DNA of 64,000 bases from Candidatus Eisenbacteria bacterium RBG_16_71_46 (GCA_001780165.1 MFFQ01000066.1:39082-103081), one strand, 5' to 3'; counted from the first letter of the stretch, positions 33,949 to 60,631 are shown. A program made the numbers and translations. The notes: generated by a model not told the origin, from the letters alone.

Positions 33949-34485
33949 ATGGCTTCGAAGTCCAGCGCACAGAAGTTCATCGCCCGCAATCGGGCGCCGC
34001 GCGTTCAGATCGAGTACGACGTCGAGATCGGGAACGCGGAAAAGAAGGTCCAGCTGCCCTTCGTCATGGGAGTCCTGGCGGATCTCTCCGGCAATCCCGC
34101 CGAAGCGCTGCCGGCGGTCGCCGACCGGAAGGCCCTGCAGATCGATGTGGACAATTTCGACCAGCGACTCAAGGCCATGAAGCCGCGCGTCGCCTTTGCC
34201 GTTCCCAACAAGCTCACCGGCGAGGGGAATCTCAGCGTGGACATCACGTTCGAGAGCATGGACGACTTCTCGCCCGCCGCGGTGGCGCGCAAGGTGGGAG
34301 CGCTGAGCAAGCTGCTCGAGGCGCGCACCCAGCTCGCCAACCTGGCGACCTACCTGGACGGCAAGACTCGCGCCGAGGATCTGGTCGCGAAGGCCCTCAA
34401 CGATCCGACGCTGCTGCAGGCGCTGTCGTCGGCTCCCAATCCAGGCGACGAGAGCGCCGCCGGCGAGGAGAAGACCAATGGCTGA
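33949..34485 (+). CDS. tssB: T6SS contractile sheath small subunit TssB (VipA).
   Basis: RVQIEYDVEIGNAEKKVQLPFVMGVLADLSG is the canonical TssB N-terminus. RBS GGAGG. Confidence 0.85.
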   Translation: MASKSSAQKFIARNRAPRVQIEYDVEIGNAEKKVQLPFVMGVLADLSGNPAEALPAVADRKALQIDVDNFDQRLKAMKPRVAFAVPNKLTGEGNLSVDITFESMDDFSPAAVARKVGALSKLLEARTQLANLATYLDGKTRAEDLVAKALNDPTLLQALSSAPNPGDESAAGEEKTNG

Positions 34486-35971
34486 CGGGAAGGCGGCCGA
34501 ACAGGCCCAGGCGCAGGCCGGCGTCAAGACGCTCGAGCCCGGCGAGTTCGAATCCCTGCTCGGCAAGGAGTACAAGGCCGAGAAGACCAAGGAGGCCGTG
34601 CTCGACGGCGTCAAGACGCTGGCCGAGTGGGCGATGAAGTACAGCACGGTCATCTCGGACGACGCGATCAAGTCCATCGACGCCATCAAGGCCGAGATCG
34701 ACCGCCTGCTCACCGAGCAGGTGACCGTCATCCTCCACCAAGCCGAATTCCAGAAGCTCGAGGGGGCGTGGCGGGGCCTCTATCATCTGGTCAGCAACAC
34801 CGAAACCGACGAGATGCTCAAGATCCGGGTCTTCAACGTCTCGAAGAAGGACCTGCACAAGACCCTCGCGAAGTTCAAGGGCACGAACTGGGACCAGAGC
34901 CCGATCTTCAAGCAGATCTATGAAGACGGCTACGGCGTGCTGGGCGGCGAGCCCTTTGGCTGCCTGGTCGGTGACTTCCACTTCGACCACGGCCCGCAGG
35001 ACGTCGAGCTGCTGGGCGAGATGGCCAAGGTCGCGGCCGCATCGCACGCGCCGTTCATCACCGGCGCGGCTCCCGGCCTGATGGGCTTCGAGTCGTGGCA
35101 GGAGCTGAGCAATCCGCGCGACCTCGCCAAGATCCAGAGCACTCCCGAGTATGCCGCGTGGCGCTCGCTGCGCGACTCGGAAGACTCGCGCTACATCGGG
35201 CTCGCGATGCCGCGCTTCCTCGCCCGGCTCCCCTACGGGGCCAAGACCAGCCCGGTCGAGGAGTTCGATTTCGAGGAAGACACCGAGGGCGCCAAGCACG
35301 ACAACTACACGTGGGCGAATTCGGCCTACGCGATGGCCGTCAACATCAACAAGTCGTTCAAGGAGTTCGGCTGGTGCTCGCGGATTCGCGGCGTCGAATC
35401 GGGCGGAACGGTGGAGGGCCTGCCGGTCCACACCTTCCCCAGCGACGACGGCGGCGTGGACATGAAGTGCCCGACCGAGATCGCGATCACCGACCGCCGC
35501 AGCAAGGAGCTGGACGACCTCGGCATGATGCCGCTGACCCATCGCAAGGGCCAGGACGTCGCGACGTTCGTCGCGGCGCAGTCGCTCCAGAAGCCCGCCG
35601 AGTACGCGGACGCGGATGCGGCCGCGAACGCACGGCTGGCGGCCCGGCTGCCGTACCTGTTCGCGACCTGCCGGTTCGCGCACTATCTCAAGTGCATCGT
35701 CCGCGACAAGATCGGGTCCTTCAAGGAACGCGCGGACATGGAAACCTGGCTCAACAACTGGATCGTGCAATACGTGCTGGCGAATCCCTCGGTGGCCACC
35801 GAAGCGGAGAAGGCGAGAAAGCCCCTCGCCGGCGCGGAGGTCCAGGTCAAGGAAATCGAGGGGAACCCCGGCTACTACAGTTCGACGTTCTTCCTGAGGC
35901 CCCACTATCAGCTCGAGGGTCTCACCGTCTCGCTGCGCCTGGTTTCGCGGCTGCCGTCGGCCAAGAAGTAG
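34478..35971 (+). CDS. tssC: T6SS contractile sheath large subunit TssC (VipB).
   Basis: Highly conserved TssC blocks throughout (AMPRFLARLPYG, YTWANSAYAMAVNINKSF, LFATCRFAHYLK). Overlaps the tssB stop by 8 nt. Confidence 0.95.
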   Translation: MADGKAAEQAQAQAGVKTLEPGEFESLLGKEYKAEKTKEAVLDGVKTLAEWAMKYSTVISDDAIKSIDAIKAEIDRLLTEQVTVILHQAEFQKLEGAWRGLYHLVSNTETDEMLKIRVFNVSKKDLHKTLAKFKGTNWDQSPIFKQIYEDGYGVLGGEPFGCLVGDFHFDHGPQDVELLGEMAKVAAASHAPFITGAAPGLMGFESWQELSNPRDLAKIQSTPEYAAWRSLRDSEDSRYIGLAMPRFLARLPYGAKTSPVEEFDFEEDTEGAKHDNYTWANSAYAMAVNINKSFKEFGWCSRIRGVESGGTVEGLPVHTFPSDDGGVDMKCPTEIAITDRRSKELDDLGMMPLTHRKGQDVATFVAAQSLQKPAEYADADAAANARLAARLPYLFATCRFAHYLKCIVRDKIGSFKERADMETWLNNWIVQYVLANPSVATEAEKARKPLAGAEVQVKEIEGNPGYYSSTFFLRPHYQLEGLTVSLRLVSRLPSAKK

Positions 35972-46649: not shown

Positions 46650-48152
46650 TCAACTCCAGGGACCGGCCAGCGCGGCGGCGGGATCGGCGAGCGACTGGAA
46701 CCGGACCAGGCGCACCGCATTGCGATCGGGAAAGCTCATGAAGGGCATGATGCCTCGCCCCAGGATCGCCTCCAGCGCCCGCTCGGTGAGCACGACCTCG
46801 GCGCACGGCTGGAGCCGCGACTCCCCGTCGAGACGGTAGGTATGGGCCGGGAGGCTCCCGAGCTCGAGATGGTCGCCGGGGTCCATCGACCAACCGCTCT
46901 CCAGAAAGGAGTTCGCCAGCAGCGTCGCGCACGCGAAGGCGGGATTGCCCCACAGGTAAGCCTCGTGGTCGCGTTCCGGCGGCAGCTCCTCGAATGCGAA
47001 CCGCTCGGTGGCGTCGGTGCGTGGGCCGTAGGGCAGGCGCGAGAGCACGCGCGGCATCGCGAGGCCGATCCAGCGTGCCCATGCGCTGCTCCGCAGCGCC
47101 GCCCAGCGCTCCTCTTCCCCCGCCTCGAACGGGCGCCACGCCCGCGGATCCGGTGCCGCGGCCAGCGAGCCGCATCCGAGGATCGCCGGCGTCGCTGCGG
47201 CCAGGAACGGTCCTCCCGCGCGGGAGGCGATCGCCCCCAACGCACCGAGCAGTACCACGTCCTCGGGGTTACTCCCGAACGCGTAGCCGCCGACGATCAC
47301 CGACCAGGGACCGGCTCCGGGAGTGCCGGCGCCGCGCTCGACCAGTTGCCGGTAGGTGGCACTCCGCTCGAGTTCTCCGCCCGACGCGACCAGGTCCGCG
47401 GCCAGCTCCTGCCGCGTGACGTCGAGGAGCGAGACCTGGATCTCCTCACCGATCTCGATCTGCGAGAGCAGGCCCTCGATCGAGCGCCACGTGGATTCGA
47501 GCGCCTGGAAGGCGGGATGATGCAGCAGGGCGCGCGTCTGCCGGCTGATCGTGCGATCGACCGACGCGATCCACTCCGCCTGGCGCGGATCCGCCTGCGG
47601 CACGACGTCGGCGGCGATCATCCCCTTCACCATGCGCCGCACGTCCTCGCGCAGCCGGCCCTCGACGCGGACGCCCCCGAGGTCGCGGGGAGCGCTGCCG
47701 AGCAGACGGCCGATGGTCTCCGCGTCCTCCTCCGCCACGATGGTCGCGCGCGGCGTCGCGGCCTCCGCGCCGCCCAATTCCGCCGCGGTGGTCTCGAACG
47801 TGGCGGGATCCTGGAGCCGGCGCCGGGTCTCGCGCAGCGCCTCGAACAGACCGAGGCGCTGGAATAGCTCGTCGGGATGGAATTCGCCGATGCCGCCGAA
47901 TTCGATCGCCAGCTCGGGCCCCGAGGGGTCGAGCCGCAGCCGGAGCCCGGGTGCGAGGCGCGCGAAGGTCGTTTCGAGGGTCTCGTGGCTCAGGGCCATC
48001 TGCGGCCGCTCGGCCAACGGCTGTGCCGCGTCGGGCTGCCGCTGGCCGCGGCCACCGAGGTCCGCGAGGACGAGGACGCGCATCGGAGCCCCCGCGCGGG
48101 GCGCGGGGCGCGGGCTCCGATCGTCTCCGCCGAAACGGAATTCGAATCGCAT
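46650..48152 (-). CDS. Fused TssB-TssC-like contractile-sheath paralog (single ~500-aa polypeptide).
   Basis: N-terminal ~120 aa align to TssB: MRFEFRF / RVQIEYDV; VLVLADLGG / VMGVLADLSG; IEFGGIGEFHPDELFQRLGL / ITFESMDDFSPAAVARKVGA. The rest aligns to TssC: LLHHPAFQALESTWRSIEGLL / ILHQAEFQKLEGAWRGLYHLV; GLAMPRVLSRLPYGPRTDATERFAFEE / GLAMPRFLARLPYGAKTSPVEEFDFEE; YLWGNPAFACATLLANSFLESGW / YTWANSAYAMAVNINKSFKEFGW; LPAHTY / LPVHTF. Start chosen at the TssB-homologous Met (48152). Confidence 0.7.
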   Translation of the reverse strand: MRFEFRFGGDDRSPRPAPRAGAPMRVLVLADLGGRGQRQPDAAQPLAERPQMALSHETLETTFARLAPGLRLRLDPSGPELAIEFGGIGEFHPDELFQRLGLFEALRETRRRLQDPATFETTAAELGGAEAATPRATIVAEEDAETIGRLLGSAPRDLGGVRVEGRLREDVRRMVKGMIAADVVPQADPRQAEWIASVDRTISRQTRALLHHPAFQALESTWRSIEGLLSQIEIGEEIQVSLLDVTRQELAADLVASGGELERSATYRQLVERGAGTPGAGPWSVIVGGYAFGSNPEDVVLLGALGAIASRAGGPFLAAATPAILGCGSLAAAPDPRAWRPFEAGEEERWAALRSSAWARWIGLAMPRVLSRLPYGPRTDATERFAFEELPPERDHEAYLWGNPAFACATLLANSFLESGWSMDPGDHLELGSLPAHTYRLDGESRLQPCAEVVLTERALEAILGRGIMPFMSFPDRNAVRLVRFQSLADPAAALAGPWS

Positions 48153-48244
48153 CGGACCTGTCACCGACCGCCTCCCATGGTGTAATCTTCCCCGCGCACA
48201 CGATATCGTGGACCCCACCATGCCTCGAGCGCAAGGGGAGGGTG

Positions 48245-50410
48245 ATGATGAGCACCAGGCCGATCGCGGTGAAGAGCCCACTGGGTAAGGATGTCCTGCT
48301 GCTCCTCCACTTGAAGGCCAGCGAGGAGCTGGGACGCCTTTCGCTGTTCGAGCTGGAGCTCCTCAGCGAGAATCACGAGGTCAAGCTCGAGGACCTGCTC
48401 GGAAAGAGCGTGACGCTCGAGCTCGAGCGTCCCGCCGGCAAGCCGCGCTACTTCAACGGCCTGGTGACGCGCTTCTCGCAATCCGGACGGATCGGGCGCT
48501 ACTCGCGCTACCACGCCACCCTGCGCCCCTGGCTGTGGCTCCTCACTCGCACCGCCGACTGCCGCATCTTTCCCGATCCGAAGGAAGCCGAGTCGAAGAC
48601 CATTCCCGAGATCCTGAAGGACGTGTTCCGCAAGAACGGCTTCTCGGACTTCAAGGAACGGCTCCACGGGACCTACAAGCCGCGCGAGTACTGCGTCCAG
48701 TATCGGGAGACCGATTTCAACTTCGTGAGCCGGCTGATGGAGGAGGAGGGAATCTATTACTACCTCGAGCACGAGGACGGAAAGCACTTCGTCGTGCTGG
48801 CCGACTCGAGCACGTCGCACGATCCGATCCCGGGCTGCGAGAAGGTCCCCTTCATGGCGGCGACGGTCGAGAGCGCGGCGCGGGTCGATCACATCTCGGA
48901 CTGGCAGCTCGTCCACGAGCTACAGAGCGGCTCGGCCGTGCTCGACGACTACGATTTCGAGGTGTCGCGCGCGGACCTCAGCGTCCGGGCGTCGGTGCCG
49001 CGCGGCCACGCCCACGCCAAGCTGGAGATCTACGATTACCCGGGCTTCTACGTCGGCGCCTACAGCGCGCGCGGCGAGGGGACCCAGGGAGACAAGGACG
49101 CTCTCGATCGTGGCCAGCACTTCGCGCGCACGCGGATCGAGGAGGCCCAGACCGACTACGAGCAGATCCACGGCGGCGGCAACGTGCGCGGACTGGCGGT
49201 GGGAGGTGTGTTCAAGCTCACGGATTTCCATCGTGAGGATCAGAACCGCGACCACCTCGTGGTCGCGAGCGAGCTCGAGGTCCAGGTCGGCGGTTACGAG
49301 GGCTTCGACGCGGGCTCGAAAGAGACGCTCTACCGCTGCCGGTTCAGCGCCGTCCCGAGCAAGGTGCCGTTTCGGACGCGACGCATCACGCCCAAGCCGA
49401 GCATTCCCGGGCCGCAGACCGGGACCGTCGTCGGCAAGTCCGGCGAGGAGATCTGGACCGACGTGCACGGGCGGGTGAAGGTCCAGTTTCACTGGGACCG
49501 CAAGGGCGGCCACGACGAGAGCAGCTCGTGCTGGGTGAGGGTGGCGCACCCGTGGGCCGGCAAGAGCTGGGGCATCGTGCACATTCCGCGCATCGGCCAC
49601 GAGGTGGTGGTCGAATTCCTCGAGGGCGACCCCGACCGGCCGATCATCACCGGCAGCGTCTACAACGGGCAGAACAAGCCTCCCTACAAGCTGCCCGACC
49701 ACCAGACGCAGAGCGGGATCAAGTCCCGCAGCACCAAGGAAGGCGGCCCCGACAACTTCAACGAGATCCGCTTCGAGGACAAGAAGGGCGAGGAGCAGCT
49801 CTTCATCCACGCCGAGAAGAACCAGGACATCGAGGTCGAGAACGACGAGACCCACTCGGTGGGCCACGACCGCACCAAGACCATCGACCACGACGAGACG
49901 ACCCACGTCAAGAACAACCGCACCGAGACCGTGGACAAGGAGGAGAGCATCACGATCGGCGGGAGTCGGACGGAGAACGTCGCGAAGGACGAGACGATTG
50001 CTATCGGCGCGAACCGGACCGAGACCGTGGCCAAGGACGAATCGATCACGATCAGCGGTGGCCGGAAGGAGTCGGTGAGTAAGGACGAGAGCATTGCCAT
50101 CGGTGGCGGTCGTACCGAAACCGTGGCCAAGGACGAATCGATCACGATTTCCGGCAATCGCGAACTGATGGTGGCGAAGGACGAGGGTGTTTCGATCGGC
50201 GAGAAGTACAGCCAGAGCGTTGGCAAGGATGCCACGATCGATGTCGGCAAGAAGCTGACGATCCAGGCCGGAGATGAGATCACCCTGAAGACCGGATCGG
50301 CGAGCATCACGCTCAAGAAGAGTGGCGATGTCGTGATTTCCGGCGGCAAGGTAAGCGTCAAGGCGTCGGGAGACCTGACCCTCAAGGGATCGAAGATCGC
50401 GCAGAACTGA
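48245..50410 (+). CDS. vgrG: T6SS spike protein VgrG (TssI), with no C-terminal effector extension.
   Basis: gp27-like N-terminus (GLVTRFSQSGRIGRYSRYHATLRPWLWLL). gp5 OB-fold region. C-terminal beta-helix repeats. RBS AAGGGGAGG. Confidence 0.9.
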   Translation: MMSTRPIAVKSPLGKDVLLLLHLKASEELGRLSLFELELLSENHEVKLEDLLGKSVTLELERPAGKPRYFNGLVTRFSQSGRIGRYSRYHATLRPWLWLLTRTADCRIFPDPKEAESKTIPEILKDVFRKNGFSDFKERLHGTYKPREYCVQYRETDFNFVSRLMEEEGIYYYLEHEDGKHFVVLADSSTSHDPIPGCEKVPFMAATVESAARVDHISDWQLVHELQSGSAVLDDYDFEVSRADLSVRASVPRGHAHAKLEIYDYPGFYVGAYSARGEGTQGDKDALDRGQHFARTRIEEAQTDYEQIHGGGNVRGLAVGGVFKLTDFHREDQNRDHLVVASELEVQVGGYEGFDAGSKETLYRCRFSAVPSKVPFRTRRITPKPSIPGPQTGTVVGKSGEEIWTDVHGRVKVQFHWDRKGGHDESSSCWVRVAHPWAGKSWGIVHIPRIGHEVVVEFLEGDPDRPIITGSVYNGQNKPPYKLPDHQTQSGIKSRSTKEGGPDNFNEIRFEDKKGEEQLFIHAEKNQDIEVENDETHSVGHDRTKTIDHDETTHVKNNRTETVDKEESITIGGSRTENVAKDETIAIGANRTETVAKDESITISGGRKESVSKDESIAIGGGRTETVAKDESITISGNRELMVAKDEGVSIGEKYSQSVGKDATIDVGKKLTIQAGDEITLKTGSASITLKKSGDVVISGGKVSVKASGDLTLKGSKIAQN
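49921..50220 (+). repeat. Tandem ~57-nt coding repeats (19-aa units, xITIGGxRTExVAKDES) forming the VgrG C-terminal beta-helix.
   Basis: Visible DNA-level tandem repetition (GACGAATCGATCACGAT.. / ACCGTGGCCAAGGACGA.. recur). Confidence 0.5.
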
Positions 50411-50417
50411 GGCGGAC

Positions 50418-51608
50418 GTGCTTCTCGACATCCTCGAAGAACACCTGGAAGAAACCGAGATCCTGTGGTCGAGCCGACGGATCACCATGCGCTCTCCGAA
50501 CCTCGACCTGCGCGGGCTGGCAGCTCTCGAGGCGCGCCTGAGCGCGCATCTCGAGGGTCTGGCGCTGGGCGCGCGGGAATCGCGCGAGTCGCTCGAGGCC
50601 GCGCTCACGGGCTGCGATACGGATCGAGCCTTCGCAGCGGCCGCGGCCCTGCTCACGACCCGCGATCCAGGGGCGAGGCAGGGCGTCCGACAGGCGCTCG
50701 CCGTGTCGTTGCCGCCGGCGCGCCGCGGGATCACGGAAGCGCTCTGCCACATGCCCCTCAAGGACGACACACGCGCGGCGCTGGAGATCCAGCTCGAGCG
50801 GAGCGCGGGGCTCGATCCCGCCGCGATCGAGGTTCTGAGCTTCCACCGATGCCTTCCTGACGGGAATCTCGCGCTAGCCGTGCCTGGCGGGGATCGCGAA
50901 ACGCGGCGAGCCGCGGCGCGCGCGATCGGCCGCATGGGGGGCAGGGCCGACTGGGCGCAATGGCTCGTCGGGGACGACGACCAGGCGGTGAGGGACTTGG
51001 CGCTTCAGGCCGCGGCGCGATGCGGGCTGCCGTGGGCGCACCGGAAACTCCGCCTGGTCTGTGGGGATGGCGAGCGGGTCTCTCCCGAATCACTCCGACT
51101 GCTCGCGTGCCTCGGCGATCGCTCAGACATCGAGCTTCTCAGGACCTGCGCTCACCGACACGAACTTGGCGACGCGGCCGTTGCCGGTCTCGGGACGCTT
51201 GGTTACACCGGATGCGTCGACGCGCTGATGGAGGTCGTGGGAGACGCGCGTCTGGCCCGTGCCGCGGGACGGGCGTTCAAGAGGATTACCGGATTGGAGC
51301 CGCCGGTGATCGCGGAACAATCGAGCGGGCTCGAGATCGAGGACGCCACCTTCGAGGATCTGCGCCCGATTCCAGATGCCGGAGCCACGCGGGCGCTATG
51401 GCGCGAGCGGCGAGCGGGCTTCGACGCGCACATTCGCTGGCGCGACGGCGAGCCGCTCGAGACCGGGCGCTGGAAGCAGGCGCCCTATCTCGGCGATCTC
51501 TTGACGAGGCGCGAGGAGCTCACCCGTCTCTGGATGCAGGAGCCGGCCCTCTTCCCGAAACTCGAATTGGATGCACCCGTGGCCCGTCAGCGCGCGGTCA
51601 CCGCATAG
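50418..51608 (+). CDS. HEAT/ARM-like repeat protein of unknown function, immediately downstream of vgrG.
   Basis: PBS-lyase-type HEAT repeat signatures (AVRDLALQAAARCG, DRSDIELLRTCAHRHELGDAAVAGLGTLG, ARLARAAGRAFKRITG). GTG start 8 nt after the vgrG stop. Confidence 0.45.
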   Translation: MLLDILEEHLEETEILWSSRRITMRSPNLDLRGLAALEARLSAHLEGLALGARESRESLEAALTGCDTDRAFAAAAALLTTRDPGARQGVRQALAVSLPPARRGITEALCHMPLKDDTRAALEIQLERSAGLDPAAIEVLSFHRCLPDGNLALAVPGGDRETRRAAARAIGRMGGRADWAQWLVGDDDQAVRDLALQAAARCGLPWAHRKLRLVCGDGERVSPESLRLLACLGDRSDIELLRTCAHRHELGDAAVAGLGTLGYTGCVDALMEVVGDARLARAAGRAFKRITGLEPPVIAEQSSGLEIEDATFEDLRPIPDAGATRALWRERRAGFDAHIRWRDGEPLETGRWKQAPYLGDLLTRREELTRLWMQEPALFPKLELDAPVARQRAVTA

Positions 51609-51619
51609 GAGGAGCGATC

Positions 51620-52102
51620 ATGGCGATCACCGATGTGTTCAAGCGCGCCCTGGCGGGGGAACTGGGGCTTTCACGGGGGCGCGTTGTCGCGATCGAGTCC
51701 GACGGCAGGGTGCGGGTCCGCATCGGTGCCGGACGCGGACCGGATGTTCCCTGCGAGGTGCTGCAAACGGGCACGACGGCTGCGGCGCGGCTGACCGTCG
51801 GCAGCGATGTGTTGGTCGCATGCCCGGAGGAGCCGGGAAGACCGGGCGTGATCCTGGGCACCGTGGGGTCGGCGGAGGCGGTCGCGGACGCTCCAGGCGC
51901 TGCCGCCGCTCCCGCCAGCGAGCCCATGCGCCTCGTCCATCGCGACATCGTGATCGAAGCCGGTGAGGAGTTGACGCTCCGGTGTGGCGAGGCCTCGATC
52001 AAGATCCGCCGCGACGGCAAGATCGTGATCCGCGGCGAGCACATCCTGAGCCGCGCGAAGGGCACGCAGCGAATCAAGGGAGGGAGCGTGGCGATCAATT
52101 AG
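51620..52102 (+). CDS. Small gpV/gp5-OB-fold-like protein (phage baseplate assembly protein V-like).
   Basis: GRVVAIESDGRVRVRIGAGRGPDVPCEVLQ...VGSDVLVACPEEPGRPGVILGTV resembles the Phage_base_V OB-fold pattern. RBS GGAGG. Confidence 0.4.
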   Translation: MAITDVFKRALAGELGLSRGRVVAIESDGRVRVRIGAGRGPDVPCEVLQTGTTAAARLTVGSDVLVACPEEPGRPGVILGTVGSAEAVADAPGAAAAPASEPMRLVHRDIVIEAGEELTLRCGEASIKIRRDGKIVIRGEHILSRAKGTQRIKGGSVAIN

Positions 52103-52152
52103 CTGGGAGTTCGCCGCGGAAGCGCCGCCGCCGTCATACAAGCGAGGGGATC

Positions 52153-52641
52153 ATGCCAGCAACGCTGAACGTGAATTTTCTGACCGTCGTGCATGCCGGA
52201 AGCTCCGGAATGGTGGTGGGCTTCCCGGATGTGTGCCTGACGCCGTCCCCCGCGGGGCCAATCCCCATTCCGTACCCCAACATTGCCCAATCAGCCGATA
52301 CCTCGCAGGGCAGTCAGACTGTGACCGTCGACGGCAATCCCATCATGCTGAAGGACTCGGTATTCGCGACCAGTTCGGGGGACGAAGCCGGCTCGGCCGG
52401 GGGGGGCGTGGTTTCGGCCACCACCAAGGGGAAGGCTGAATTCGCGCTGTACTCGTTCGATGTCAAATTCGATGGCAAGAACGTCTGTCGCCTCAGCGAC
52501 ATCATGCTGCTGAACAAGCTATCAACCCCGAACACACCGCCATTCCCCGAGATTCAGCCGCCACTCGTCGTGCTGCCGAGCATCATGAGTGAGGATCCTG
52601 AAAAGAAGCCCGATGTCGGCATGTTCGACCGCAAACAGTAA
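52153..52641 (+). CDS. PAAR-like protein, DUF4150 family (T6SS spike-tip cap), with a short Pro-rich C-terminal extension.
   Basis: GFPDVCLTPSPAGPIPIPYPNIAQSAD...TVDGNPIMLKDSVFATSSGDEAGSAGGGVVS matches DUF4150 PAAR-like consensus blocks. Confidence 0.7.
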   Translation: MPATLNVNFLTVVHAGSSGMVVGFPDVCLTPSPAGPIPIPYPNIAQSADTSQGSQTVTVDGNPIMLKDSVFATSSGDEAGSAGGGVVSATTKGKAEFALYSFDVKFDGKNVCRLSDIMLLNKLSTPNTPPFPEIQPPLVVLPSIMSEDPEKKPDVGMFDRKQ

Positions 52642-52790
52642 CGTGCCCCGGCCGCTGTGGCACCCGGGCGATGCGCGTCCCGCGGATCGATCTGGCATGG
52701 GCCTCTCCGGTCCTCGTATGCGCGACGAGTGCCCGGAACTCCAGCCCAACCGGGCGTTGGACCGCCCTGCGGAGCTGCTCGAGGTGACGA

Positions 52791-53804
52791 GTGCTTGAGT
52801 TGCAGAACCAGACGCCCTTTGCCGCGATTCTGCTGCCGACCCTCGAACCGGATGGCAGCGATGCTTTGCTGACGATCGTCAAGGCGACCTATGAGATCCG
52901 GAGCGGCGGACCGCTCGAACTGGCGCCCCAGCAGCGGGCATTCGTCATGGCGGACGAGTTCTGGGGGGAGCCCGCGATGTCGAGCTTGCGCTATGCGAGC
53001 GATCTCGTGCCCGAGAAGCGTGGCACGGACGTCGTGCTGGTCGGCACCGCGCATGCCCCTCGAGGCCGAGCCACGCAGGTCGACGTCACCCTGGAAGTGG
53101 GCCCTCTACGCAAGACCGTTCGGGTCATCGGCGATCGTCGTTGGCGGAGATTCCTCTTCTTTTCATTCCCTTCCAGGCCGGAACCCTTCGCCACGATGCC
53201 GTTGGTCTATGAACGCGCCTTTGGCGGCGAGGACAAGAGTCGGAAGAAGCCCGGCAAGTGGGCGCACGAAGCGCGTAATCCGGTGGGTCGAGGCCTGGTC
53301 TCGAATCCCAGGCGGAAGGACCTTCGCCAGGTGTTGCTCCCCAATCTGGAGGATCCGCTGCATCGTCTGACGAAGCACTCCTCCCGCCCCCCACCGGCGT
53401 GCTTCGGATTCGTCGCGCCGAGCTGGGAGCCGAGGAGACGGTATGCCGGGACCTACGACGACGGCTGGAAGACCGGCCGTTGTCCGTTACTGCCGGCGGA
53501 CTTTGACCCGCGTTTCTACAATGCCGCTGCGCCGGATCTCGTGAGCGACGGGTTTCTTCAAGGTGGTGAGCTCGTGCGCCTGACGAACGCGTCCAAGGAC
53601 GGAACGCTGACCTTGCGGCTGCCCATCGTCAAGGTCGCCACCGAGTTCTTCATCGACGGGGCGGTGGTTTCGCAGAGGTGCGACCTCGACACGGTGCTCC
53701 TGGAGCCCGACGAAGGACAGGTCGTGTTGACGTGGCGTACGAAAGTCCGGTGTCATCGCAAGATCAAGCTCGTCGCCGGGGCCCGGACGAGGACCGTCTC
53801 CTGA
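52791..53804 (+). CDS. DUF2169 domain protein (T6SS effector-loading / adaptor-associated family).
   Basis: N-terminus LELQNQTPFAAILLPTLEPDGSDALLTIVKATYEI is the characteristic DUF2169 start. GTG start. Confidence 0.7.
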   Translation: MLELQNQTPFAAILLPTLEPDGSDALLTIVKATYEIRSGGPLELAPQQRAFVMADEFWGEPAMSSLRYASDLVPEKRGTDVVLVGTAHAPRGRATQVDVTLEVGPLRKTVRVIGDRRWRRFLFFSFPSRPEPFATMPLVYERAFGGEDKSRKKPGKWAHEARNPVGRGLVSNPRRKDLRQVLLPNLEDPLHRLTKHSSRPPPACFGFVAPSWEPRRRYAGTYDDGWKTGRCPLLPADFDPRFYNAAAPDLVSDGFLQGGELVRLTNASKDGTLTLRLPIVKVATEFFIDGAVVSQRCDLDTVLLEPDEGQVVLTWRTKVRCHRKIKLVAGARTRTVS

Positions 53805-54922
53805 GCCCGATCACTGCGAGCCAACAGCCCCTCGATCGGATCGTCATCACGGGAATCGGCCTGGTGACGTCGGTGGGGCACCGCGCCGAGGAAGCGTTCA
53901 CGTCGCTGCGCGCCGGGATCGTGCGCTTGCAGGAGTACCCGGCTTACGAGCCCCTGGTCCGCGATCCCGCCCTCTTCTTTCCGGAGAGCGTCGTGGCATC
54001 GCCGGTGACCGAACTCACGGATGGGCTCGAAGGCGTCGAGCGACTGCTCGCGCTGGCCACCCCCGCGCTGAAGGAGGCGATCTTCGATGCAAAGCTGTCC
54101 GAGACGGACATCGGCTCCACGAGTCTTCTCGTAGCGGGAAGCCAGATGCCTTCTCGCATCCCGGGCACGAGGATCGCCACGGTCCTGGTTCCCCGGCTGG
54201 CCCAGAGGGTGGCGAGGATTCCGTTTGCAGGGAAGCAGTACTACTGCGTCGGCTCGGCCGGCTGCTTCGAGGCGTTGCATCGCGCCCGGCGGTTGTTGAA
54301 CGCTGGGACCTGCAGGTACTGCATCGTGGGTGGCGTCGACTCGTGGCTCGACCCGGAGACGCTGGCCTGGCTGGACGAGGCGAGGCGCTTGAAGAGCGAC
54401 AGCACGATCGATGGATTCATTCCAGGAGAAGCGGCCGCGTTCGTCGTCGTGGAGCGCGAGGAGCAGTGCCGGGCGAGGAAGAAACTGCCATACGCGGTCT
54501 GCGGTGGCGTGGCGCTCGACGAAGAGAAGAACACGATCTGGACCGACCAGCCCTGCACCGGCGAAGGCTTGGCGCGTTGCTTGAAGACGGTGCTGGCCGA
54601 TCCGATCGGGCGGAGCCGGGGCCCAGACGTCGTCGTCTGCGATCTGAACGGCGAGAGCTATCGAGCGAGCGAGTGGGCCTACGCCGTTCCGAAGGCGTTT
54701 CAGGAGGTCAAAGTGCCCCCCTTGGTGCACCCTGCGGACTGCATCGGTGACGTCGGGGCGGCCAGCGGCGGCGTACTGCTGGGCCTGGCGGCCTGGTCGT
54801 CGAAGAAGGACCCGGCCGAATGGAGGACCGCCCTCGCATGGTGTTCATCCGACGACGGCCTGCGGGGAGCCTGCGTCATCGAGGCGTTGGGGACGAGCCA
54901 CGCGGATCCACATGGCCGTTGA
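53750..54922 (+). CDS. Beta-ketoacyl synthase-like (thiolase-fold condensing-enzyme) protein, possibly non-canonical or inactive.
   Basis: RIVITGIGLVTSVGH N-terminus. Cys-region CVGSAGCFEALHRA. GFIPGEAAAFVVVERE. C-terminal GDVGAASGG block. Start codon uncertain (GTG 53750 or 53732). Confidence 0.6.
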   Translation: MSSQDQARRRGPDEDRLLSPITASQQPLDRIVITGIGLVTSVGHRAEEAFTSLRAGIVRLQEYPAYEPLVRDPALFFPESVVASPVTELTDGLEGVERLLALATPALKEAIFDAKLSETDIGSTSLLVAGSQMPSRIPGTRIATVLVPRLAQRVARIPFAGKQYYCVGSAGCFEALHRARRLLNAGTCRYCIVGGVDSWLDPETLAWLDEARRLKSDSTIDGFIPGEAAAFVVVEREEQCRARKKLPYAVCGGVALDEEKNTIWTDQPCTGEGLARCLKTVLADPIGRSRGPDVVVCDLNGESYRASEWAYAVPKAFQEVKVPPLVHPADCIGDVGAASGGVLLGLAAWSSKKDPAEWRTALAWCSSDDGLRGACVIEALGTSHADPHGR

Positions 54923-55244
54923 GATCACCGCCAATCAAGCGACCGTGACGGTGGGCGAGGGGATCGACCTTGGCGTCAAGTTCACCCAGGAGTGCGGAAC
55001 CCCGAAGCCCGGCGCTGGCGCCGCGGGAGTGAGTGGAAACGGAGCCGGAGGAGGGCGCAGACCGGGCTCGAGTCACCGACGATTCAGGGCGGAGCGCGAG
55101 AACCCGCGCAGCCGGCCCTGCGCGGACTCCTCGGGGAGGGCTGCCGATTCTCCGTGGGCTCTCGGGAGCCCTGGGGTGCCGCGTTGCGCTTCGACTCGGT
55201 CGGGTCGGCCGAGCTTGCATGCGAATAGCGATGGACGGTCTTGA
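54912..55244 (+). pseudogene. N-terminal module-only paralog, or degenerate copy, of the 55830-56720 gene. The first ~28 aa are homologous; the remainder is low-complexity and Arg/Gly/Pro-rich.
   Basis: MAVEITANQATVTVGEGIDLGVKFTQECG vs MAVEITGATTQVSVGEKITLGVKFTKEWG, with DNA ~75% identical over ~90 nt. ATG overlaps the ketosynthase-like gene stop. Confidence 0.35.
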
Positions 55245-55792
55245 ACAGCGTGGTCTATTCTCGCCGAGTGCGCTCCTCGTTCATCAGTGCGTTGGTCGCC
55301 GTCTGCGTCGTCTGCGGCTGCACCCACCCAGTCGAAACGATCCAAGAGGAACCCAGGATGTCCGACCTAGAATGGGGCCCTGTCACGGAGTGGTGCCGCG
55401 TCTCCTTGTCAGCCGACCGCTCATCGTCCGTGGCGGGAGAGAAGATCACCGTAACGGTGGTACTCCGAAATGTTTCGGACAAGCCCGTCCAATACGAGCC
55501 TTATCCCTTCGCGCCCGGGATCGATTACAAGGTGTTCGCCGCAGAGGGCGAGTCGGCCGAGATGACGGCCTATGGCCGGCTACTTCGCGATTCTGCGGGA
55601 GTCTCCTCTTCGGCCGTCGAGACGCTGGCCCCCGGACAGGACGTCGTCTACGAGCTGCTGCTCAGCCGGGTCTACGACCTGACGGTCGCGAAGAGCTACC
55701 GGGCACAGGTCTCGCGCGTCATCGTCTCGCAAGGGCGTTCCGCGACTGCCAGCTCCAACGTGCTGAAGCTCGAGGTCTCGGAGCGCGAGTGA
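55241..55792 (+). CDS. Putative lipoprotein or secreted protein; candidate immunity protein.
   Basis: Signal/lipobox-like ISALVAVCVVCGCTHP. Lower GC. Start codon uncertain (TTG 55241, GTG 55250 or 55268). Confidence 0.45.
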   Translation: MNSVVYSRRVRSSFISALVAVCVVCGCTHPVETIQEEPRMSDLEWGPVTEWCRVSLSADRSSSVAGEKITVTVVLRNVSDKPVQYEPYPFAPGIDYKVFAAEGESAEMTAYGRLLRDSAGVSSSAVETLAPGQDVVYELLLSRVYDLTVAKSYRAQVSRVIVSQGRSATASSNVLKLEVSERE

Positions 55793-55829
55793 AGGAGGCC
55801 TCCGCTTTCGGTCTCTCCCAGAGGGTGTG

Positions 55830-56720
55830 ATGGCCGTCGAGATCACGGGCGCCACAACTCAGGTCAGCGTTGGCGAGAAGATCACGCTCGGGGTCAAGTT
55901 CACCAAGGAATGGGGCGTGCTCAAGAGCGTCGACTGGTCCATCCCCGGGAAGGTGATCAAGAATTACACGTGCAACTTCGCGCAGGGCAAGCTCGAGGTG
56001 TTTGCCCCCCCGGGCCCGGGCAAGTTCGCGGCCGAATTTCACTGGGTGGACGGGGCGGACGGCCGCGTGGTCGAGGCCAAGTGCGTGTTCACGGCCTCCG
56101 GGAAGGACGTGAACAAGACCGTTTCCGCGACTTTCGACGTCAAGCGCCCGAAGCTGGACTCGTATACGTCGGCGACCGGGAGTGTGAAGATCGACGGCGA
56201 CAAGATGGGCCTTCTCGGCCCCGGCATCACCTGGACCGCCAAGGTGTCGCCCAACGGGGCCCGCGCTGGGTTGATCGCATTCATTCAGCAAATCAAACCC
56301 CACCGGGTCTGGGTGCCGGGGAAGAAGTGGAGCTCGGGTGGCGTGTTCGTGCTCGACGGAGCCGCCGGTAAGTCGAAGATCTTCTACGCGCAACAGACCG
56401 AATCGCTGTCTGGTGGCACGGCAACGCTGACCTCCAACGACAGCCCATCGAATCCTCTGAGTGCCTTCCCGGCAGCGCTCACGAACACGGGGGAAGATGC
56501 ATTCAAGATCTTCGTGATGTACCAGTCGTCGGCCGCCGGCAGTCTCTGGGTTCCGCTGGGGGTGCTGGCGTGGAACTGGAAGGGTGAGGCGCGACGAGGG
56601 TCAACGGGTGATCCATGGGCGATGCACGGTACGCCTTCCTGGTCTGTAAACCCCTCCGGTGCAGACACACTGGATTTCCCTGAATGGAGCAAGTACTACC
56701 CGAACCTCGGCTACACGTAG
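55830..56720 (+). CDS. Novel 297-aa protein with no recognisable domain and no signal peptide; candidate T6SS cargo/effector.
   Basis: Clean ORF with RBS GAGGG. Shares its N-terminal 28-aa module with the fragment at 54912. Lower GC than the T6SS core. Confidence 0.5.
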   Translation: MAVEITGATTQVSVGEKITLGVKFTKEWGVLKSVDWSIPGKVIKNYTCNFAQGKLEVFAPPGPGKFAAEFHWVDGADGRVVEAKCVFTASGKDVNKTVSATFDVKRPKLDSYTSATGSVKIDGDKMGLLGPGITWTAKVSPNGARAGLIAFIQQIKPHRVWVPGKKWSSGGVFVLDGAAGKSKIFYAQQTESLSGGTATLTSNDSPSNPLSAFPAALTNTGEDAFKIFVMYQSSAAGSLWVPLGVLAWNWKGEARRGSTGDPWAMHGTPSWSVNPSGADTLDFPEWSKYYPNLGYT

Positions 56721-57147
56721 GGCTGTCGTTCGCCAGGGGATGGAGCCACGCCCCGCGATGGAGGCGCCGACGCCCTCCCTGCCTCCTGACGGTGTCGATC
56801 GAGGTAGGGAGGCCCGACTCCCGCAGACTTGCTGCCCGGATGATCTGCGTGCAACCGGATTGGAGCCTCGTCCGACCTGACCCCGGCGCGTGGGCCTGCG
56901 CGACGAGCGCGATGTCGGTCGCGGTCTTGGTGAGGCGCACCTCCGAGGCGTACTCGAGGCTCGACTCGCCCGGCCGCCAGACCGGCCCGCACATTCGAGG
57001 CGGGCAACCGACACGGTCGCGCGGCGGCCGCGCGCCGGAGCGCGGGCTTCCCGGACGGAGCGGCGGAGACCGCACGCCCGGGGCGGCCGGTCCACGCGGG
57101 CGGACCTTGTGACCGCCCCGCGCCGCTGATACGGTCCGCGCCGCGCC

Positions 57148-58848
57148 ATGGAATCCCAACAGGTCTCGCACTACCAGCTCGGGCGGATGCTCGGGCGCGG
57201 TGGGATGGGCGAGGTCTACGAGGCGGTGGACCTCAACCTCGATCGCCGCGTCGCCCTCAAGTTCATCGCCCCCGAGCTCGCGGCCGATCCCGAGAGCCTG
57301 CGCCGCTTCGAGCGCGAAGCGCGCTCGGCGGCCGCGCTCACGCATCCGCACATCGCGACGCTCTACGAGTTCGTGCGCGACGGCCCGCGCCCCTTCATCG
57401 CCATGGAGCTCATCACCGGGGCGAGCCTGCGCGCCAAGATCGGCGCCGGGCCACTCCCGATCGCCGAGGCGCTGGGGATCGCGCGCGACGTGGCCTCGGC
57501 GCTGGCCGCCGCCCACCGGCGCGGCATCGTGCACCGGGACATCAAGCCCGAGAACCTGATGCTCGACGAGCACGGCGCGATCAAGGTCATGGATTTCGGT
57601 CTCGCGCGCGCGACGCAGGCCTCGCGTTTGACCATGACCGGCACCACCCTCGGCACCGCCGGCTACATGGCGCCCGAGGCGATCCGCGGCGAGCCGGGGA
57701 TGCCGGCCGACGTCTTCGCGCTCGGCGCGGTGCTGCACGAGATGCTCGCCGGCGAGCTGCCGTTCAAGGGGGATAACCCGCTGGCGCTGATGTACTCGAT
57801 CTCGAACATGCCGGCCCGGCCGCTGCGCGAGGTGCGCCCCGAGACTCCCGAGGCGGTCGAGGCGCTGGTGCTGCGCGTCCTCGAGAAGGACCCGGAGCAG
57901 CGCCCCGACGCCGCGACCCTGGCGCACGAGCTGGGGGTGCTCACCGGGGTGCGCGCGGCCGGGCTCGAGGCCACGACGCTCGAGCTCGAAATCGAGCGGG
58001 TCCCGCCGTCGGTTCCGGCGAAGGTCGAAGGCGTGTTCCCCGCGCGCCGCCGGTCATGGCGCGCGCGCGCCCTGGTCGCCGCCGTCCTGGTCGTGGTGGC
58101 GGTGCTGGCCGGCTTCGGGTGGCGCGAGCGCGACCGGAGGAACGCCGTGGCGGCGCTGGACCTTCAGACCCGCGGCAAGACGGCGCACCAGGAGGGCCGC
58201 ATCGATGAGGCGCAGTCGCTCTACCAGCAGGCGCTGCGGAGAAACCCGAAGAACGCCGGAGCGCTGGGCAATCTGGCGCTGATCTACATGGACCGGGGAC
58301 GGCTCACGACCGCCGACTCGCTGCTGCGGGCGATGCTCCGCCACACGCCGCGCGACCCGGTGCTGCAGGCCGCCGCCCACGCCAGCCTGGCGGAGATCCG
58401 CATGCGCGAGCTCGCGTGGTCCGCGGCGGTCCAGGATCTCGAGCGGGCCTTCGCGCTGGATTCCTCGTCGGCGAACGCCTACAACAACCTGGGCTACGCG
58501 CTGATCCGGAACCAGCAGCTCGCCGCCGCGGTCGCGGTCCTGCGCCGGGGAGTGAAGCGCTTTCCGGGCGAGGCCTTTCTGTTCAAGAACGTCGCCGACG
58601 CGGAGCTGCAGATGGGAGAGGCGAAGGGCGCGCTCCCCGACCTCGATCGGGCGCTGGCGCTCGCCCCCGATCTCGCCTCGGCGCGCGGTCTGCGCGCCGA
58701 GGCCCGCGCGCAGGCCGGGGACCTGGCGGGTGCCAGGGCCGACTGGAGGATCTACGCCGCGGCGCGGACCGACTCGGCGGAGCGGGCGAGGATCGCCCGC
58801 GTCCTGGCCGAGCGGGGGGTCCCGCTCGAGCCCACGGAGGCGCCGTAG
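57148..58848 (+). CDS. Hanks-type Ser/Thr protein kinase with a TM segment and C-terminal TPR repeats.
   Basis: GRGGMGEVY, ALK, HRDIKPENLML, DFGLAR and APE motifs. TM segment ALVAAVLVVVAVLAGFGW. TPR-like repeats follow. Confidence 0.85.
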   Translation: MESQQVSHYQLGRMLGRGGMGEVYEAVDLNLDRRVALKFIAPELAADPESLRRFEREARSAAALTHPHIATLYEFVRDGPRPFIAMELITGASLRAKIGAGPLPIAEALGIARDVASALAAAHRRGIVHRDIKPENLMLDEHGAIKVMDFGLARATQASRLTMTGTTLGTAGYMAPEAIRGEPGMPADVFALGAVLHEMLAGELPFKGDNPLALMYSISNMPARPLREVRPETPEAVEALVLRVLEKDPEQRPDAATLAHELGVLTGVRAAGLEATTLELEIERVPPSVPAKVEGVFPARRRSWRARALVAAVLVVVAVLAGFGWRERDRRNAVAALDLQTRGKTAHQEGRIDEAQSLYQQALRRNPKNAGALGNLALIYMDRGRLTTADSLLRAMLRHTPRDPVLQAAAHASLAEIRMRELAWSAAVQDLERAFALDSSSANAYNNLGYALIRNQQLAAAVAVLRRGVKRFPGEAFLFKNVADAELQMGEAKGALPDLDRALALAPDLASARGLRAEARAQAGDLAGARADWRIYAAARTDSAERARIARVLAERGVPLEPTEAP

Positions 58849-59143: not shown

Positions 59144-60631
59144 ATGACCCGCGTAACACGCGAATTCACCCGCCCGCGCAACTACTACTTGGCCGCCGCC
59201 GCCCTGATCCTGATCGGACTGTTGATCGGCCTGGGTCTGAGCGCCGGGTTCGACCTTCAGCGCGTCTCGACGGCGGCCCGAAACGGCCTCCAACTGTCGA
59301 CCAACCCCGCGGACCTGCCCGAGAGCCCGTTCGTCTCGGTGGTCGAGCGGGCGCTGCCCGCCGTGGTCTTCGTCGACGTCAAGAAGAAGGTCGCCGCCGC
59401 CGACGGCGACGATCCGCATTCCGATCTCTTCCGCCGCTTCTTCGGCGACAACCCGCAGCGTCGGATGGTGCGGCCCACCTCGGGGTCGGGCTTCATCATC
59501 GATCCGTCGGGCTACATCCTGACCAACAACCACGTGGTTTCGAATGCCGATGACATCAATGTCACGCTCAACGACGGCCGCAGCTTCAAGGCCACGGTGA
59601 TCGGCACCGATCCGGAGACCGACGTTGCGGTCATCAAGATCGAGGGCCGTAACCTGCCGGTGATCCCGCTGGGTGATTCGGACAAGCTGCGCGTGGGTGA
59701 CTACGCCATCGCGATCGGCAATCCGCTGGGCGAGCTCAAGGGCTCGGTGACCATGGGCATCATCAGCGCCCAGGGACGCTCCAACCTGAACATCTGGGGA
59801 GGGACCCCCGGGTTCCAGGACTTCATCCAGACCGACGCGTCGATCAACTTCGGCAACTCGGGCGGCCCGCTCTGCAACATCCGGGGCGAGGCGATCGGTA
59901 TCAACACCGCGATCAACCCCGGCGGGCAGGGCATCGGCTTCGCCATTCCCATCAACCTCGCCGGTCACGTGGCCGAGCAACTCGTGGCGACCGGCACCGT
60001 GAAGCGCGCCATGCTCGGGGTCTACCTCGCTCCGCTGACGCCCGAGCTGGCCGAGGGCTTCGGCATCGCCGCGACGCAGGAAGGCGTCCTGATCCAGAGC
60101 GTGAATCCCGGCTCGGCCGCTGAGAAGGCCGGCATCAAGCGCAACGACGTCATCGTCGAATTCGACGGGGTTCCGGTGGGCGATCTGCAGAAGTTCCGCC
60201 TCAAGGTGGCCGATACCCCGGTGGGCAAGCGCGTCCCGCTGGCCGTGCTTCGCGAGGGCAAGCGCGTCACCCTGAACGTCACTCTGGCCGAGCGCAGCAC
60301 CGAGGCGTTGGCCCAGGCGCGGCCCCAACCCCAGCCGACCGAGAGGCCGACGCTGGCCGGGCTGCAGGTCCGGGATCTCACCGGCAGCGAGAAGTCCGAG
60401 CTGTCGGTCAAGACCGGGGTGGTGATCACCGACGTCGAGGACGGCAGCGCCGCGAATGACGCCGGACTGCGGGCGGGCGACGTGATCGAGGAGGTCGGCG
60501 GCAAATCCGTGGCGAGCGTCGGCGACTTCACCAAGCTGGTGCGCGACGCCAGGACCCGCGGCAACTTCGCGGTCCTGCTGCGCAACCGGAACGGAGACGT
60601 GGCATTCGTTCCCCTGCGCGTCCGCGAGTAG
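59144..60631 (+). CDS. degP: Periplasmic serine endoprotease DegP/HtrA (trypsin-like domain plus two PDZ domains).
   Basis: GSGFIIDPSGYILTNNHVV (His), DVAVIKI (Asp) and GNSGGPL (Ser). Two PDZ segments. Confidence 0.9.
   Translation: MTRVTREFTRPRNYYLAAAALILIGLLIGLGLSAGFDLQRVSTAARNGLQLSTNPADLPESPFVSVVERALPAVVFVDVKKKVAAADGDDPHSDLFRRFFGDNPQRRMVRPTSGSGFIIDPSGYILTNNHVVSNADDINVTLNDGRSFKATVIGTDPETDVAVIKIEGRNLPVIPLGDSDKLRVGDYAIAIGNPLGELKGSVTMGIISAQGRSNLNIWGGTPGFQDFIQTDASINFGNSGGPLCNIRGEAIGINTAINPGGQGIGFAIPINLAGHVAEQLVATGTVKRAMLGVYLAPLTPELAEGFGIAATQEGVLIQSVNPGSAAEKAGIKRNDVIVEFDGVPVGDLQKFRLKVADTPVGKRVPLAVLREGKRVTLNVTLAERSTEALAQARPQPQPTERPTLAGLQVRDLTGSEKSELSVKTGVVITDVEDGSAANDAGLRAGDVIEEVGGKSVASVGDFTKLVRDARTRGNFAVLLRNRNGDVAFVPLRVRE

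Follow-up and report, generated by a model that had tools for sequence, protein, structure and literature searches.

The closest described relative of the gene module analyzed here is the vgrG1b island (PA0095-PA0101) of the Pseudomonas aeruginosa type VI secretion system (T6SS). It combines VgrG1b with the OB-fold/DUF6484 protein PA0096, the DUF2169 protein PA0097, the thiolase-like PRK06147 protein PA0098, Tse7 (PA0099), Tsi7 (PA0100) and PA0101, a 'heat repeat-containing protein' (PMC7970981). Delivery of Tse7 requires the DUF2169 protein (PMC11883445). The pef operon of Proteus mirabilis is of the same type; its pefDE toxin-immunity pair by itself gave no T6SS-dependent killing, whereas the whole operon kills, and insertions in pefD-G abolish this killing (PMC5714391). 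Here we analyzed a stretch of 64,000 nucleotides (nt) from Candidatus Eisenbacteria bacterium RBG_16_71_46, a high-GC metagenome-assembled genome; this whole stretch is called the window. In it, a vgrG gene at 48245-50410 is followed by an island of spike-associated genes that ends at position 56720, with all island genes on the plus strand.

On the evidence of gene neighbourhoods, PRK06147 was proposed by Liu et al. (2020) as a likely 'novel adaptor', and these authors found TIGR02270 fused to PRK06147 in 3.8% of cases (PMC7714669). Sachar et al. (2025) described DUF6484, thiolase-like and armadillo-like genes beside DUF2169 as 'synteny type A', which accounts for 28% of DUF2169 genes and is the most frequent single-domain DUF2169 arrangement (PMC11883445). 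In the 'Class II Tvp' scheme of Monlezun, Earl and Coulthurst (2026), the DUF2169 protein is called TvpA, the name TvpC stands for a pre-complex protein that mimics VgrG and here has the DUF6484 type, and the PRK06147 protein is TvpD, predicted to be a PAAR-domain co-chaperone on the basis of AlphaFold models of PA0096-PA0097-PA0098 with the Tse7 PAAR domain (PMC13373197). A PAAR-like domain fused to a C-terminal toxin was stated to be typical of Class I and Class II in these authors' strain set (PMC13373197).

Judged from its gene content, the window module is a Class II Tvp module, equivalent to DUF2169 synteny type A, except that its tip is not fused to a toxin. The VgrG (TssI) spike, of 721 amino acids (aa), matched Phage_GPD (Pfam, E = 2e-97), Gp5_trimer_C and TIGR03361 (NCBIfam, E = 9e-191), and its beta-prism is encoded by 48-nt repeats at 49868-50251. 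It is followed by a TIGR02270-type HEAT/armadillo-repeat protein (396 aa, 50418-51608), a small protein with an OB fold and short beta-prism (160 aa, 51620-52102), a stand-alone DUF4150/PIPY PAAR-like tip protein (162 aa, 52153-52641), a DUF2169 protein of the TvpA or Tap2-type PAAR chaperone kind (337 aa, 52791-53804; Pfam E = 3e-98 over the full length) and a ketosynthase (KS)-like protein of the PRK06147 family (390 aa, 53750-54922). Pfam thus placed vgrG, DUF4150/PIPY and DUF2169 in one cluster at 48245-53804, and the PRK06147 gene lies directly downstream of the DUF2169 gene, overlapping its end. The island closes with a short gene remnant (54912-55007), a predicted lipoprotein (183 aa, 55241-55792) and an all-beta protein of 296 aa (55830-56720). 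An earlier note on this DNA had listed these genes, and Pfam, NCBIfam and gene analysis showed all of them, their order and their coordinates to be real. The note had also called the module atypical and a condensing-enzyme fold beside tip genes unexpected; this did not hold, since the set is the known vgrG1b-type, synteny type A arrangement and is routinely annotated in RefSeq.

Compared with the P. aeruginosa island, the window has the same five families beside VgrG (DUF6484-type OB-fold, DUF2169, PRK06147 KS-like, DUF4150 tip and TIGR02270/HEAT) and the same conserved frame around a variable toxin/immunity slot. It differs in gene order, with the HEAT gene first and the tip gene between those for DUF6484 and DUF2169; in its tip, which carries a 36-aa tail in place of a fused toxin domain; in its putative toxin, a separate gene of an uncharacterized all-beta family; and in its putative immunity protein, a lipoprotein that points to a periplasmic target, whereas the P. 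aeruginosa counterpart is a cytoplasmic nuclease immunity protein. The host is also a member of Candidatus Eisenbacteria and not of the Proteobacteria. Found outside the Proteobacteria, the locus is a new representative of a T6SS loading module that is already known, and it shows a split-cargo form with an uncharacterized cargo family; a chaperone or adaptor role for its KS-like protein has already been proposed in print. We consider it likely that the region is the Class II Tvp effector-loading end of the T6SS cluster, with the 296-aa protein as a separate toxin and the lipoprotein as its immunity protein. What appears to be new is a short PAAR-like tip whose last residues track cargo type, and the 296-aa protein/lipoprotein pair as the variable part of the module.

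The KS-like protein matched NCBIfam PRK06147 with E = 1e-64 over model positions 4-343 of 349. GTG at 53750 is the sole canonical start that retains the conserved RIVITGIGL strand, and it makes the gene overlap the DUF2169 gene by 55 nt; the public gene call (P0001, 352 aa) begins at GTG 53864 and loses this N-terminal strand. An AlphaFold2 model built on 46 homologues (predicted local distance difference test, pLDDT, 93.4; predicted template modelling score, pTM, 0.93) was compared with the PDB using Foldseek, which returned FabF, FabB and pairs of KS and chain-length factor (CLF) as best matches (TM 0.72-0.80, identity 15-19%, E ~1e-17, probability 1.00). At the level of the predicted structure, this confirmed the thiolase/ketoacyl synthase (KAS) I/II fold that the earlier note had read from the sequence. 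The likeness to FabB/FabF and to the CLF of type II polyketide synthases (PKS) extends over the whole chain and includes the VITGxG strand and the DGFxxGE loop; the window protein is ~50 residues shorter than FabB/FabF.

The active-site register was established by MAFFT alignment of the KS-like protein and 46 relatives (31-62% identity) with E. coli FabF and FabB. This analysis placed N300 (54647-54649) of the DLNGES motif at FabF His303, with Asn in 46/46 relatives, and D334 (54749-54751) of the GDVGAA motif at His340, with Asp in 45/46 and Glu in 1, so that both catalytic His residues are replaced, as had been suspected. Lys335 corresponds to A329 (54734-54736; Ala in 42/46, Ser in 2, Val in 2), and Cys163 to S169 (54254-54256), where relatives carry His (26), Ser (6), Asn (4), Gln (4), Thr (3), Arg (2) or Pro (1). 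The claim that the active-site Cys is kept proved to be a register artefact. C172 of AGCFEAL (54263-54265) lies three residues past S169 along the helix and occurs in 1/46 sequences, that is, in the window sequence alone; the S169 register was also obtained from the family profile aligned without gaps to Staphylococcus aureus FabF, and from equal helix length in the model. A pairwise phmmer alignment to PDB entries had offered C172 as the nucleophile; it needs a 3-residue gap and was dropped in favour of the ungapped profile/MAFFT register and equal helix length. In this alignment, the Cys-His-His-Lys set of condensing enzymes is entirely gone; the CLF, in contrast, alters the Cys only and keeps the His residues. 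With the catalytic Cys, the two His and the Lys all replaced, the KS-like protein cannot be a condensing enzyme, and the case for a pseudo-enzyme is stronger than first proposed. We found no report of the loss of catalytic residues in PRK06147/TvpD in a literature search that was not exhaustive.

The replaced loops CDLNGE, HPADCxGDVGAA and FIPGE are the best conserved stretches of the family, and R213 is also invariant or nearly so in the 46 sequences. At the former active site, polar residues are strictly conserved at eight positions: C297, D298, N300, E302, H327, D330, C331 and D334. The near-invariant replaced loops must have a function of some kind, in binding or in another chemistry. The latter would make the KS-like protein an enzyme with a remodelled site (Asn/Glu/Asp/His/Cys), which might, as an acyltransferase or hydrolase for instance, modify a lipid, the tip or the cargo while loading proceeds, and its second-best NCBIfam match is indeed the acyltransferase subunit AmcF (E = 2.6e-16). 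We regard such an enzyme as rather improbable. The nucleophile position is not conserved, and covalent catalysis at that position is therefore excluded; no ACP (acyl carrier protein), acyl-ligase or other lipid gene was found in the module or the related loci examined; published models place the KS-like protein on the PAAR surface; and the conserved loops could equally form a binding groove. As a pseudo-enzyme, the protein had been guessed to be an adaptor or chaperone for the downstream cargo. The first part of this guess matches the published proposals for PRK06147/TvpD, whereas the second does not, because the published models seat TvpD on the PAAR domain (PMC13373197). With the TvpD role so far proposed from models and gene linkage, the near-invariant replacement residues provide precise positions for TvpD mutagenesis.

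A different pseudo-ketosynthase, TsmK, serves the T6SS membrane complex of Acinetobacter (PMC10564176). Compared by description, TsmK and the window protein share a ketosynthase fold, the loss of catalytic residues and co-option as a non-enzymatic T6SS accessory. TsmK differs in being encoded in the core cluster, in being membrane-associated and stabilizing TssM/TssL, in its mostly Acinetobacter distribution, in its ~10% identity with KS domains and in its lack of linkage to DUF2169/PAAR genes.

To survey gene neighbourhoods, one genome per GTDB species was scanned with the conserved motifs of the family, which yielded 367 confirmed KS-like relatives; counts refer to the best 79 of these 367 relatives' loci, within 10 kb of the KS-like gene. 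DUF2169 was present in 74/79 loci, a PAAR-like gene in 71/79, VgrG in ~57, a DUF6484-type gene in ~54 and a TIGR02270 HEAT gene in 41/79. The HEAT gene is thus a frequent but not constant companion. The loci span at least 10 phyla, with hosts among the Myxococcota, Gamma- and Alphaproteobacteria, Desulfobacterota, Ignavibacteria, Zixibacteria, Acidobacteria, Fibrobacterota, Gemmatimonadota, Planctomycetota, Verrucomicrobiota, Nitrospirota and Eisenbacteria, the last six of which, with the Myxococcota, illustrate how common the module is far beyond the Proteobacteria. An annotated example is a Caballeronia plasmid in RefSeq, which carries DUF6484, TIGR02270, DUF2169, 'beta-ketoacyl synthase N-terminal-like', PAAR-like toxin and immunity genes. 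These counts also bear on the idea that the KS-like gene is part of lipid or polyketide synthesis and sits beside spike genes by chance. Databases do label it 3-oxoacyl-ACP synthase. Against this, DUF2169 and PAAR-like genes accompany it across many phyla, the residues needed for condensation are absent and no fatty-acid or PKS genes were found near the KS-like gene; the lipid-operon arrangement was not seen, and we give this already refuted idea practically no credence.

Metagenomic contigs contained close relatives of the module. The same eight gene families, in permuted order, were present in L001 and L084, and most of them in L085 and L086; no DUF6484 gene was called in L085, and L086 starts inside a cut gene just ahead of its DUF6484 gene. 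In L085, an IS1595-family transposase gene (5265-6194) lies between the cargo/immunity pair and the KS-DUF2169-PAAR genes, an insertion consistent with the gene-order rearrangements among these relatives. Two window proteins had 100% identical database entries, listed under RBG_19FT_COMBO_70_11 and RBG_16_71_46.

Among the spike-tip partners, the HEAT protein is the counterpart of PA0101 and matched both NCBIfam TIGR02270 and Pfam HEAT_2 (E = 4.5e-6). The 160-aa OB-fold protein, the start codon of which (ATG 51620) has GGAGG 8 nt upstream, was assigned as a divergent DUF6484 protein of the TvpC type through its relatives, which carry PF20093 (DUF6484) from E = 6e-17 onward; this homology is transitive only. 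Its C-terminal 53 residues aligned end to end with the C-terminal 53 residues of the window VgrG (38% identity, E = 1e-9), and because of this match we take the protein to be a mimic of the VgrG tip. In the PAAR-like protein, the Tox-PAAR-like domain (Pfam E = 7e-40) covers residues 19-126 and is followed by a 36-aa C-terminal tail, NTPPFPEIQPP...DVGMFDRKQ, encoded at 52534-52641, with no toxin domain. The protein is 63-81% identical, including the tail, to those of four related loci with the 296-aa family.

Short tips of this kind were frequent. When the PAAR-like genes beside KS-like homologues were examined, 49/73 had 60 or fewer residues after the domain; the 73 comprise 71 GTDB loci and the metagenomic L001 and L002, a sample biased to relatives of the query. 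That two thirds of the sampled tips are short and lack a fused toxin qualifies the published generalization of toxin-fused Class II tips. A small DUF4150 tip without an effector domain is also found in the Class III Tvp system of Serratia marcescens, which consists of TvpAB, TvpB, TvpC/DUF3540 and the small Paar1. Both systems have a VgrG-mimicking pre-complex protein and, beside the spike genes, a gene for a periplasm-facing immunity protein, putative in the window. The window differs in lacking pentapeptide-repeat proteins and DUF3540, in having a TvpC of the short DUF6484 type and in the presence of TvpD.

The proposed T6SS cargo effector is the all-beta 296-aa protein (55830-56720, +), which has no signal peptide and belongs to an unnamed family. 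No sequence match to it was found in Pfam, NCBIfam or the PDB; when 1.84 billion cluster representatives were searched with a profile, 3971 relatives emerged, 186 of them with E < 1e-30. Across 165 relatives, the conserved residues were mainly Trp, Gly and Pro, with Q154 and D205 as the only polar positions, a pattern equally compatible with a binding module and with a minimal active site. The family also forms the C-terminal ~300 residues of many longer proteins, in which the N-terminal part is a trypsin-like peptidase, a PLD phospholipase or a combination of VanY and a beta-lactamase-like domain. The longer proteins with the module included P0220, P0227, P0228, P0230, P0232, P0241, P0254 and P0244; the module is C-terminal in most and internal in P0228 and P0244, and no Pfam family covers it. 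We also considered the module as a polymorphic-toxin C-terminal domain fused to Rhs, PAAR or VgrG; the 18 longer relatives showed trypsin-like, PLD, VanY or immunoglobulin (Ig)-type N-terminal parts instead. Separately, a leader of the form M(P/A)ERLRFERELxDLGLREYDQ replaces the signal peptide in P0221, P0223, P0236, P0237, P0240, P0249, P0261 and P0263, and may direct loading into a different delivery system.

The adjacent predicted lipoprotein (55241-55792, +) carries the signal peptide RRVRSSFISALVAVCVVCGC, with a lipobox judged by eye, and gave no Pfam or NCBIfam match. A homologue adjoins every 296-aa-family gene whose DNA was read, including those of metagenomic contigs with close relatives of the module (L001/L002, L084, L085, L086/L087 and a JGI contig). 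The lipoprotein precedes the 296-aa gene in the window and its nearest relatives, and the order is reversed in others. The two proteins diverge in parallel, with lipoprotein identities of 49-54% where the 296-aa proteins share 63-68%, and 31% where they share 38-41%. All lipoprotein homologues have a lipobox or an N-terminal membrane helix; the 296-aa proteins start MA(V/I)EITG and have no signal peptide. The pair was absent from 79/79 genomic loci, and no other part of the module varies. Many other loci have, in the position after the short-tailed PAAR-like gene, a gene for a ~480-aa HExxH protein and then one for a ~200-aa lipoprotein. The HExxH genes include those at 11551-12990 in L004, 11578-13122 in L005, 8615-9826 in L007, 11538-12863 in L010 and 11484-12902 in L043, among others; this family has a C-terminal HEMGHKLGM or HEIGHKIGM motif, no Pfam match and always a lipoprotein gene after it, and is a probable metallopeptidase-type T6SS cargo. 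The 296-aa family and the HExxH cargo family showed no homology to each other, and neither did their two lipoprotein families.

On the basis of the variable slot, the constant pairing, the parallel divergence, the export signal on the lipoprotein alone and the analogous HExxH slot, we take the 296-aa protein as the likely cargo and the lipoprotein as its immunity protein; the two probably constitute a periplasm-acting effector-immunity pair of an unnamed family. The pair could instead be accessory or structural parts, with the 296-aa protein as an Ig-like adaptor that fills a cavity in the baseplate, and the toxin encoded elsewhere or residing in the spike itself. This would accommodate a fold that consists of beta-sandwich modules only and shows no catalytic signature, and it has a parallel in the small-PAAR system of Serratia, where bulky accessory proteins were proposed to be cavity fillers, a neighbouring gene proved not to encode an effector and toxicity may lie in the spike (PMC13373197). 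A partner exported through Sec as a lipoprotein cannot join a cytoplasmic loading complex, however, and accessory parts are conserved, whereas this pair is missing from every one of the 79 genomic loci, in which the remaining machinery is present. The HExxH protein and lipoprotein occupying the same slot elsewhere, and the remnant of a replaced copy, which is typical of cassette turnover, also argue for a cargo cassette. We consider an accessory role unlikely, if well worth weighing.

The remnant precedes the lipoprotein gene. The earlier note had noticed an N-terminal fragment at this position, and tblastn and blastn comparisons established it as a genuine 5' remnant of a 296-aa-family gene, with codons 1-32 (54912-55007) sharing 62% aa and 72% nt identity with the N-terminus of the family. 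The remnant's ATG and the KS-like gene's stop codon overlap, in the manner of a translationally coupled gene. The same relationship is visible within the window as a direct repeat, D4, between 54951-54997 and 55869-55915 (77% identity). The codon-position GC of the remnant open reading frame (ORF) is atypical. No homology was detected past codon 32 in any frame, and the following 230 nt showed neither homology nor coding signal; a frameshifted full-length pseudogene was thereby ruled out. We read the remnant as the scar left when the present lipoprotein/296-aa cassette took the place of an earlier cargo gene.

Comparison of the short PAAR-like tails, those of L003-L063 included, revealed a common hinge, NTPPFPE(V/I)QPP, followed by divergent ends. 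The end was D(V/I)GxFD plus three residues in 5/5 loci with the 296-aa family (window, L001, L084, L085 and L086), and an acidic run plus (I/V)xxIE(I/F)x in at least 13 loci with the ~480-aa HExxH cargo. This suggests that the extreme C-terminus of the tip could be a docking peptide for cargo. Because the sample is small and phylogenetically structured, the covariation of tail and cargo is a lead and not a result; together with the two unnamed cargo families, it offers leads to new periplasm-acting effectors. We tentatively extend it to a specific picture, possible but less than probable in our estimation, in which, in this widespread variant, the PIPY/PAAR-like tip and its toxin have become separate proteins, the tip keeps the hinge and a terminal peptide that recruits the separate cargo, and the 296-aa protein is the first T6SS-delivered member of an envelope-acting family of ~4000 clusters that otherwise supplies the C-terminal module of secreted trypsin-like peptidases, phospholipase D and VanY-type enzymes. 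A third tail class, Cys-rich with LCxxFCWC, was observed in L045, L055 and L071.

A loading pathway for the module can be proposed from published models combined with the homology found here. The DUF4150/PIPY tip would first assemble on a trimer of the DUF6484-type protein, whose last 53 residues copy the VgrG tip. The hydrophobic faces of the tip would be covered by the DUF2169 protein (TvpA) and the KS-fold TvpD, the latter acting as a scaffold or co-chaperone that has lost every residue for Claisen condensation, and the tip would then be passed to VgrG. The TIGR02270 HEAT protein often completes the set as its fifth member. The most likely toxin is the separate beta-sandwich protein of 296 aa, which the adjacent lipoprotein would neutralize in the periplasm of the producer.

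Several observations weigh against this reading. The proposed chaperone role of TvpD derives from AlphaFold models of P. aeruginosa proteins and from gene linkage. The KS-like protein scored 218.8 bits against PRK06147, below the equivalog cut-off of 342; the Caballeronia protein annotated in RefSeq is also under this cut-off, with 188 bits. The HEAT protein, with a full-length match to TIGR02270 at E = 2.8e-40, reached 138.6 bits against a cut-off of 206.8, and the OB-fold protein gave no direct match to Pfam DUF6484, even at E = 10. Conservation of the eight polar residues in the former KS active site would seem to exceed what a simple scaffold needs. The 296-aa protein has no recognizable catalytic fold, and its relatives look like accessory modules that belong to secreted enzymes, so that it could serve in binding or as an adaptor and not be a toxin.

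The island adjoins a complete T6SS core cluster at 26.7-43.8 kb (TssK, TssL, TssM, TssA, TssC, ImpE, TssF and ClpV), which is followed by vgrG. The remnant, lipoprotein and 296-aa genes had been described as a low-GC trio. Their GC content (0.62-0.66 over 55000-56750) is in fact the same as that of the PAAR, DUF2169 and KS genes (0.62-0.67); the dip spans ~52000-56750 as a whole, between flanks of 0.72-0.75. A scan of 47.5-57.4 kb revealed no promoters or terminators beyond the shuffled expectation, and no convincing inverted or direct repeats border the island.

Upstream of the island, a second sheath-like gene (46653-48362, minus strand; 570-aa ORF, VipB/TssC N-terminal domain, Pfam E = 1e-64) is divergent beside vgrG and is additional to the canonical TssC gene at 34307-35968. 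Similar sheath-like genes, with VipA and VipB domains in one product, flank related modules in L001 (19734-20951, minus strand) and L086 (6459-8018, minus strand). The T6SS cluster also contains, in the interval from clpV to this second sheath-like gene, a gene whose product joins TPR repeats to a class I methyltransferase domain (45137-46735, minus strand). Directly 3' of the island, the sequence encodes a Ser/Thr protein kinase with C-terminal TPR repeats (57148-58848, +), followed by an HtrA/DegP-like serine protease (59144-60631, +), both assigned by reading the sequence. Kinase and protease genes were also seen beside modules of relatives, with Trypsin_2 and Pkinase genes immediately after the module in L084 (13497-15637) and a Pkinase gene ~5 kb from the module in the JGI contig, and may represent a conserved regulatory neighbourhood.

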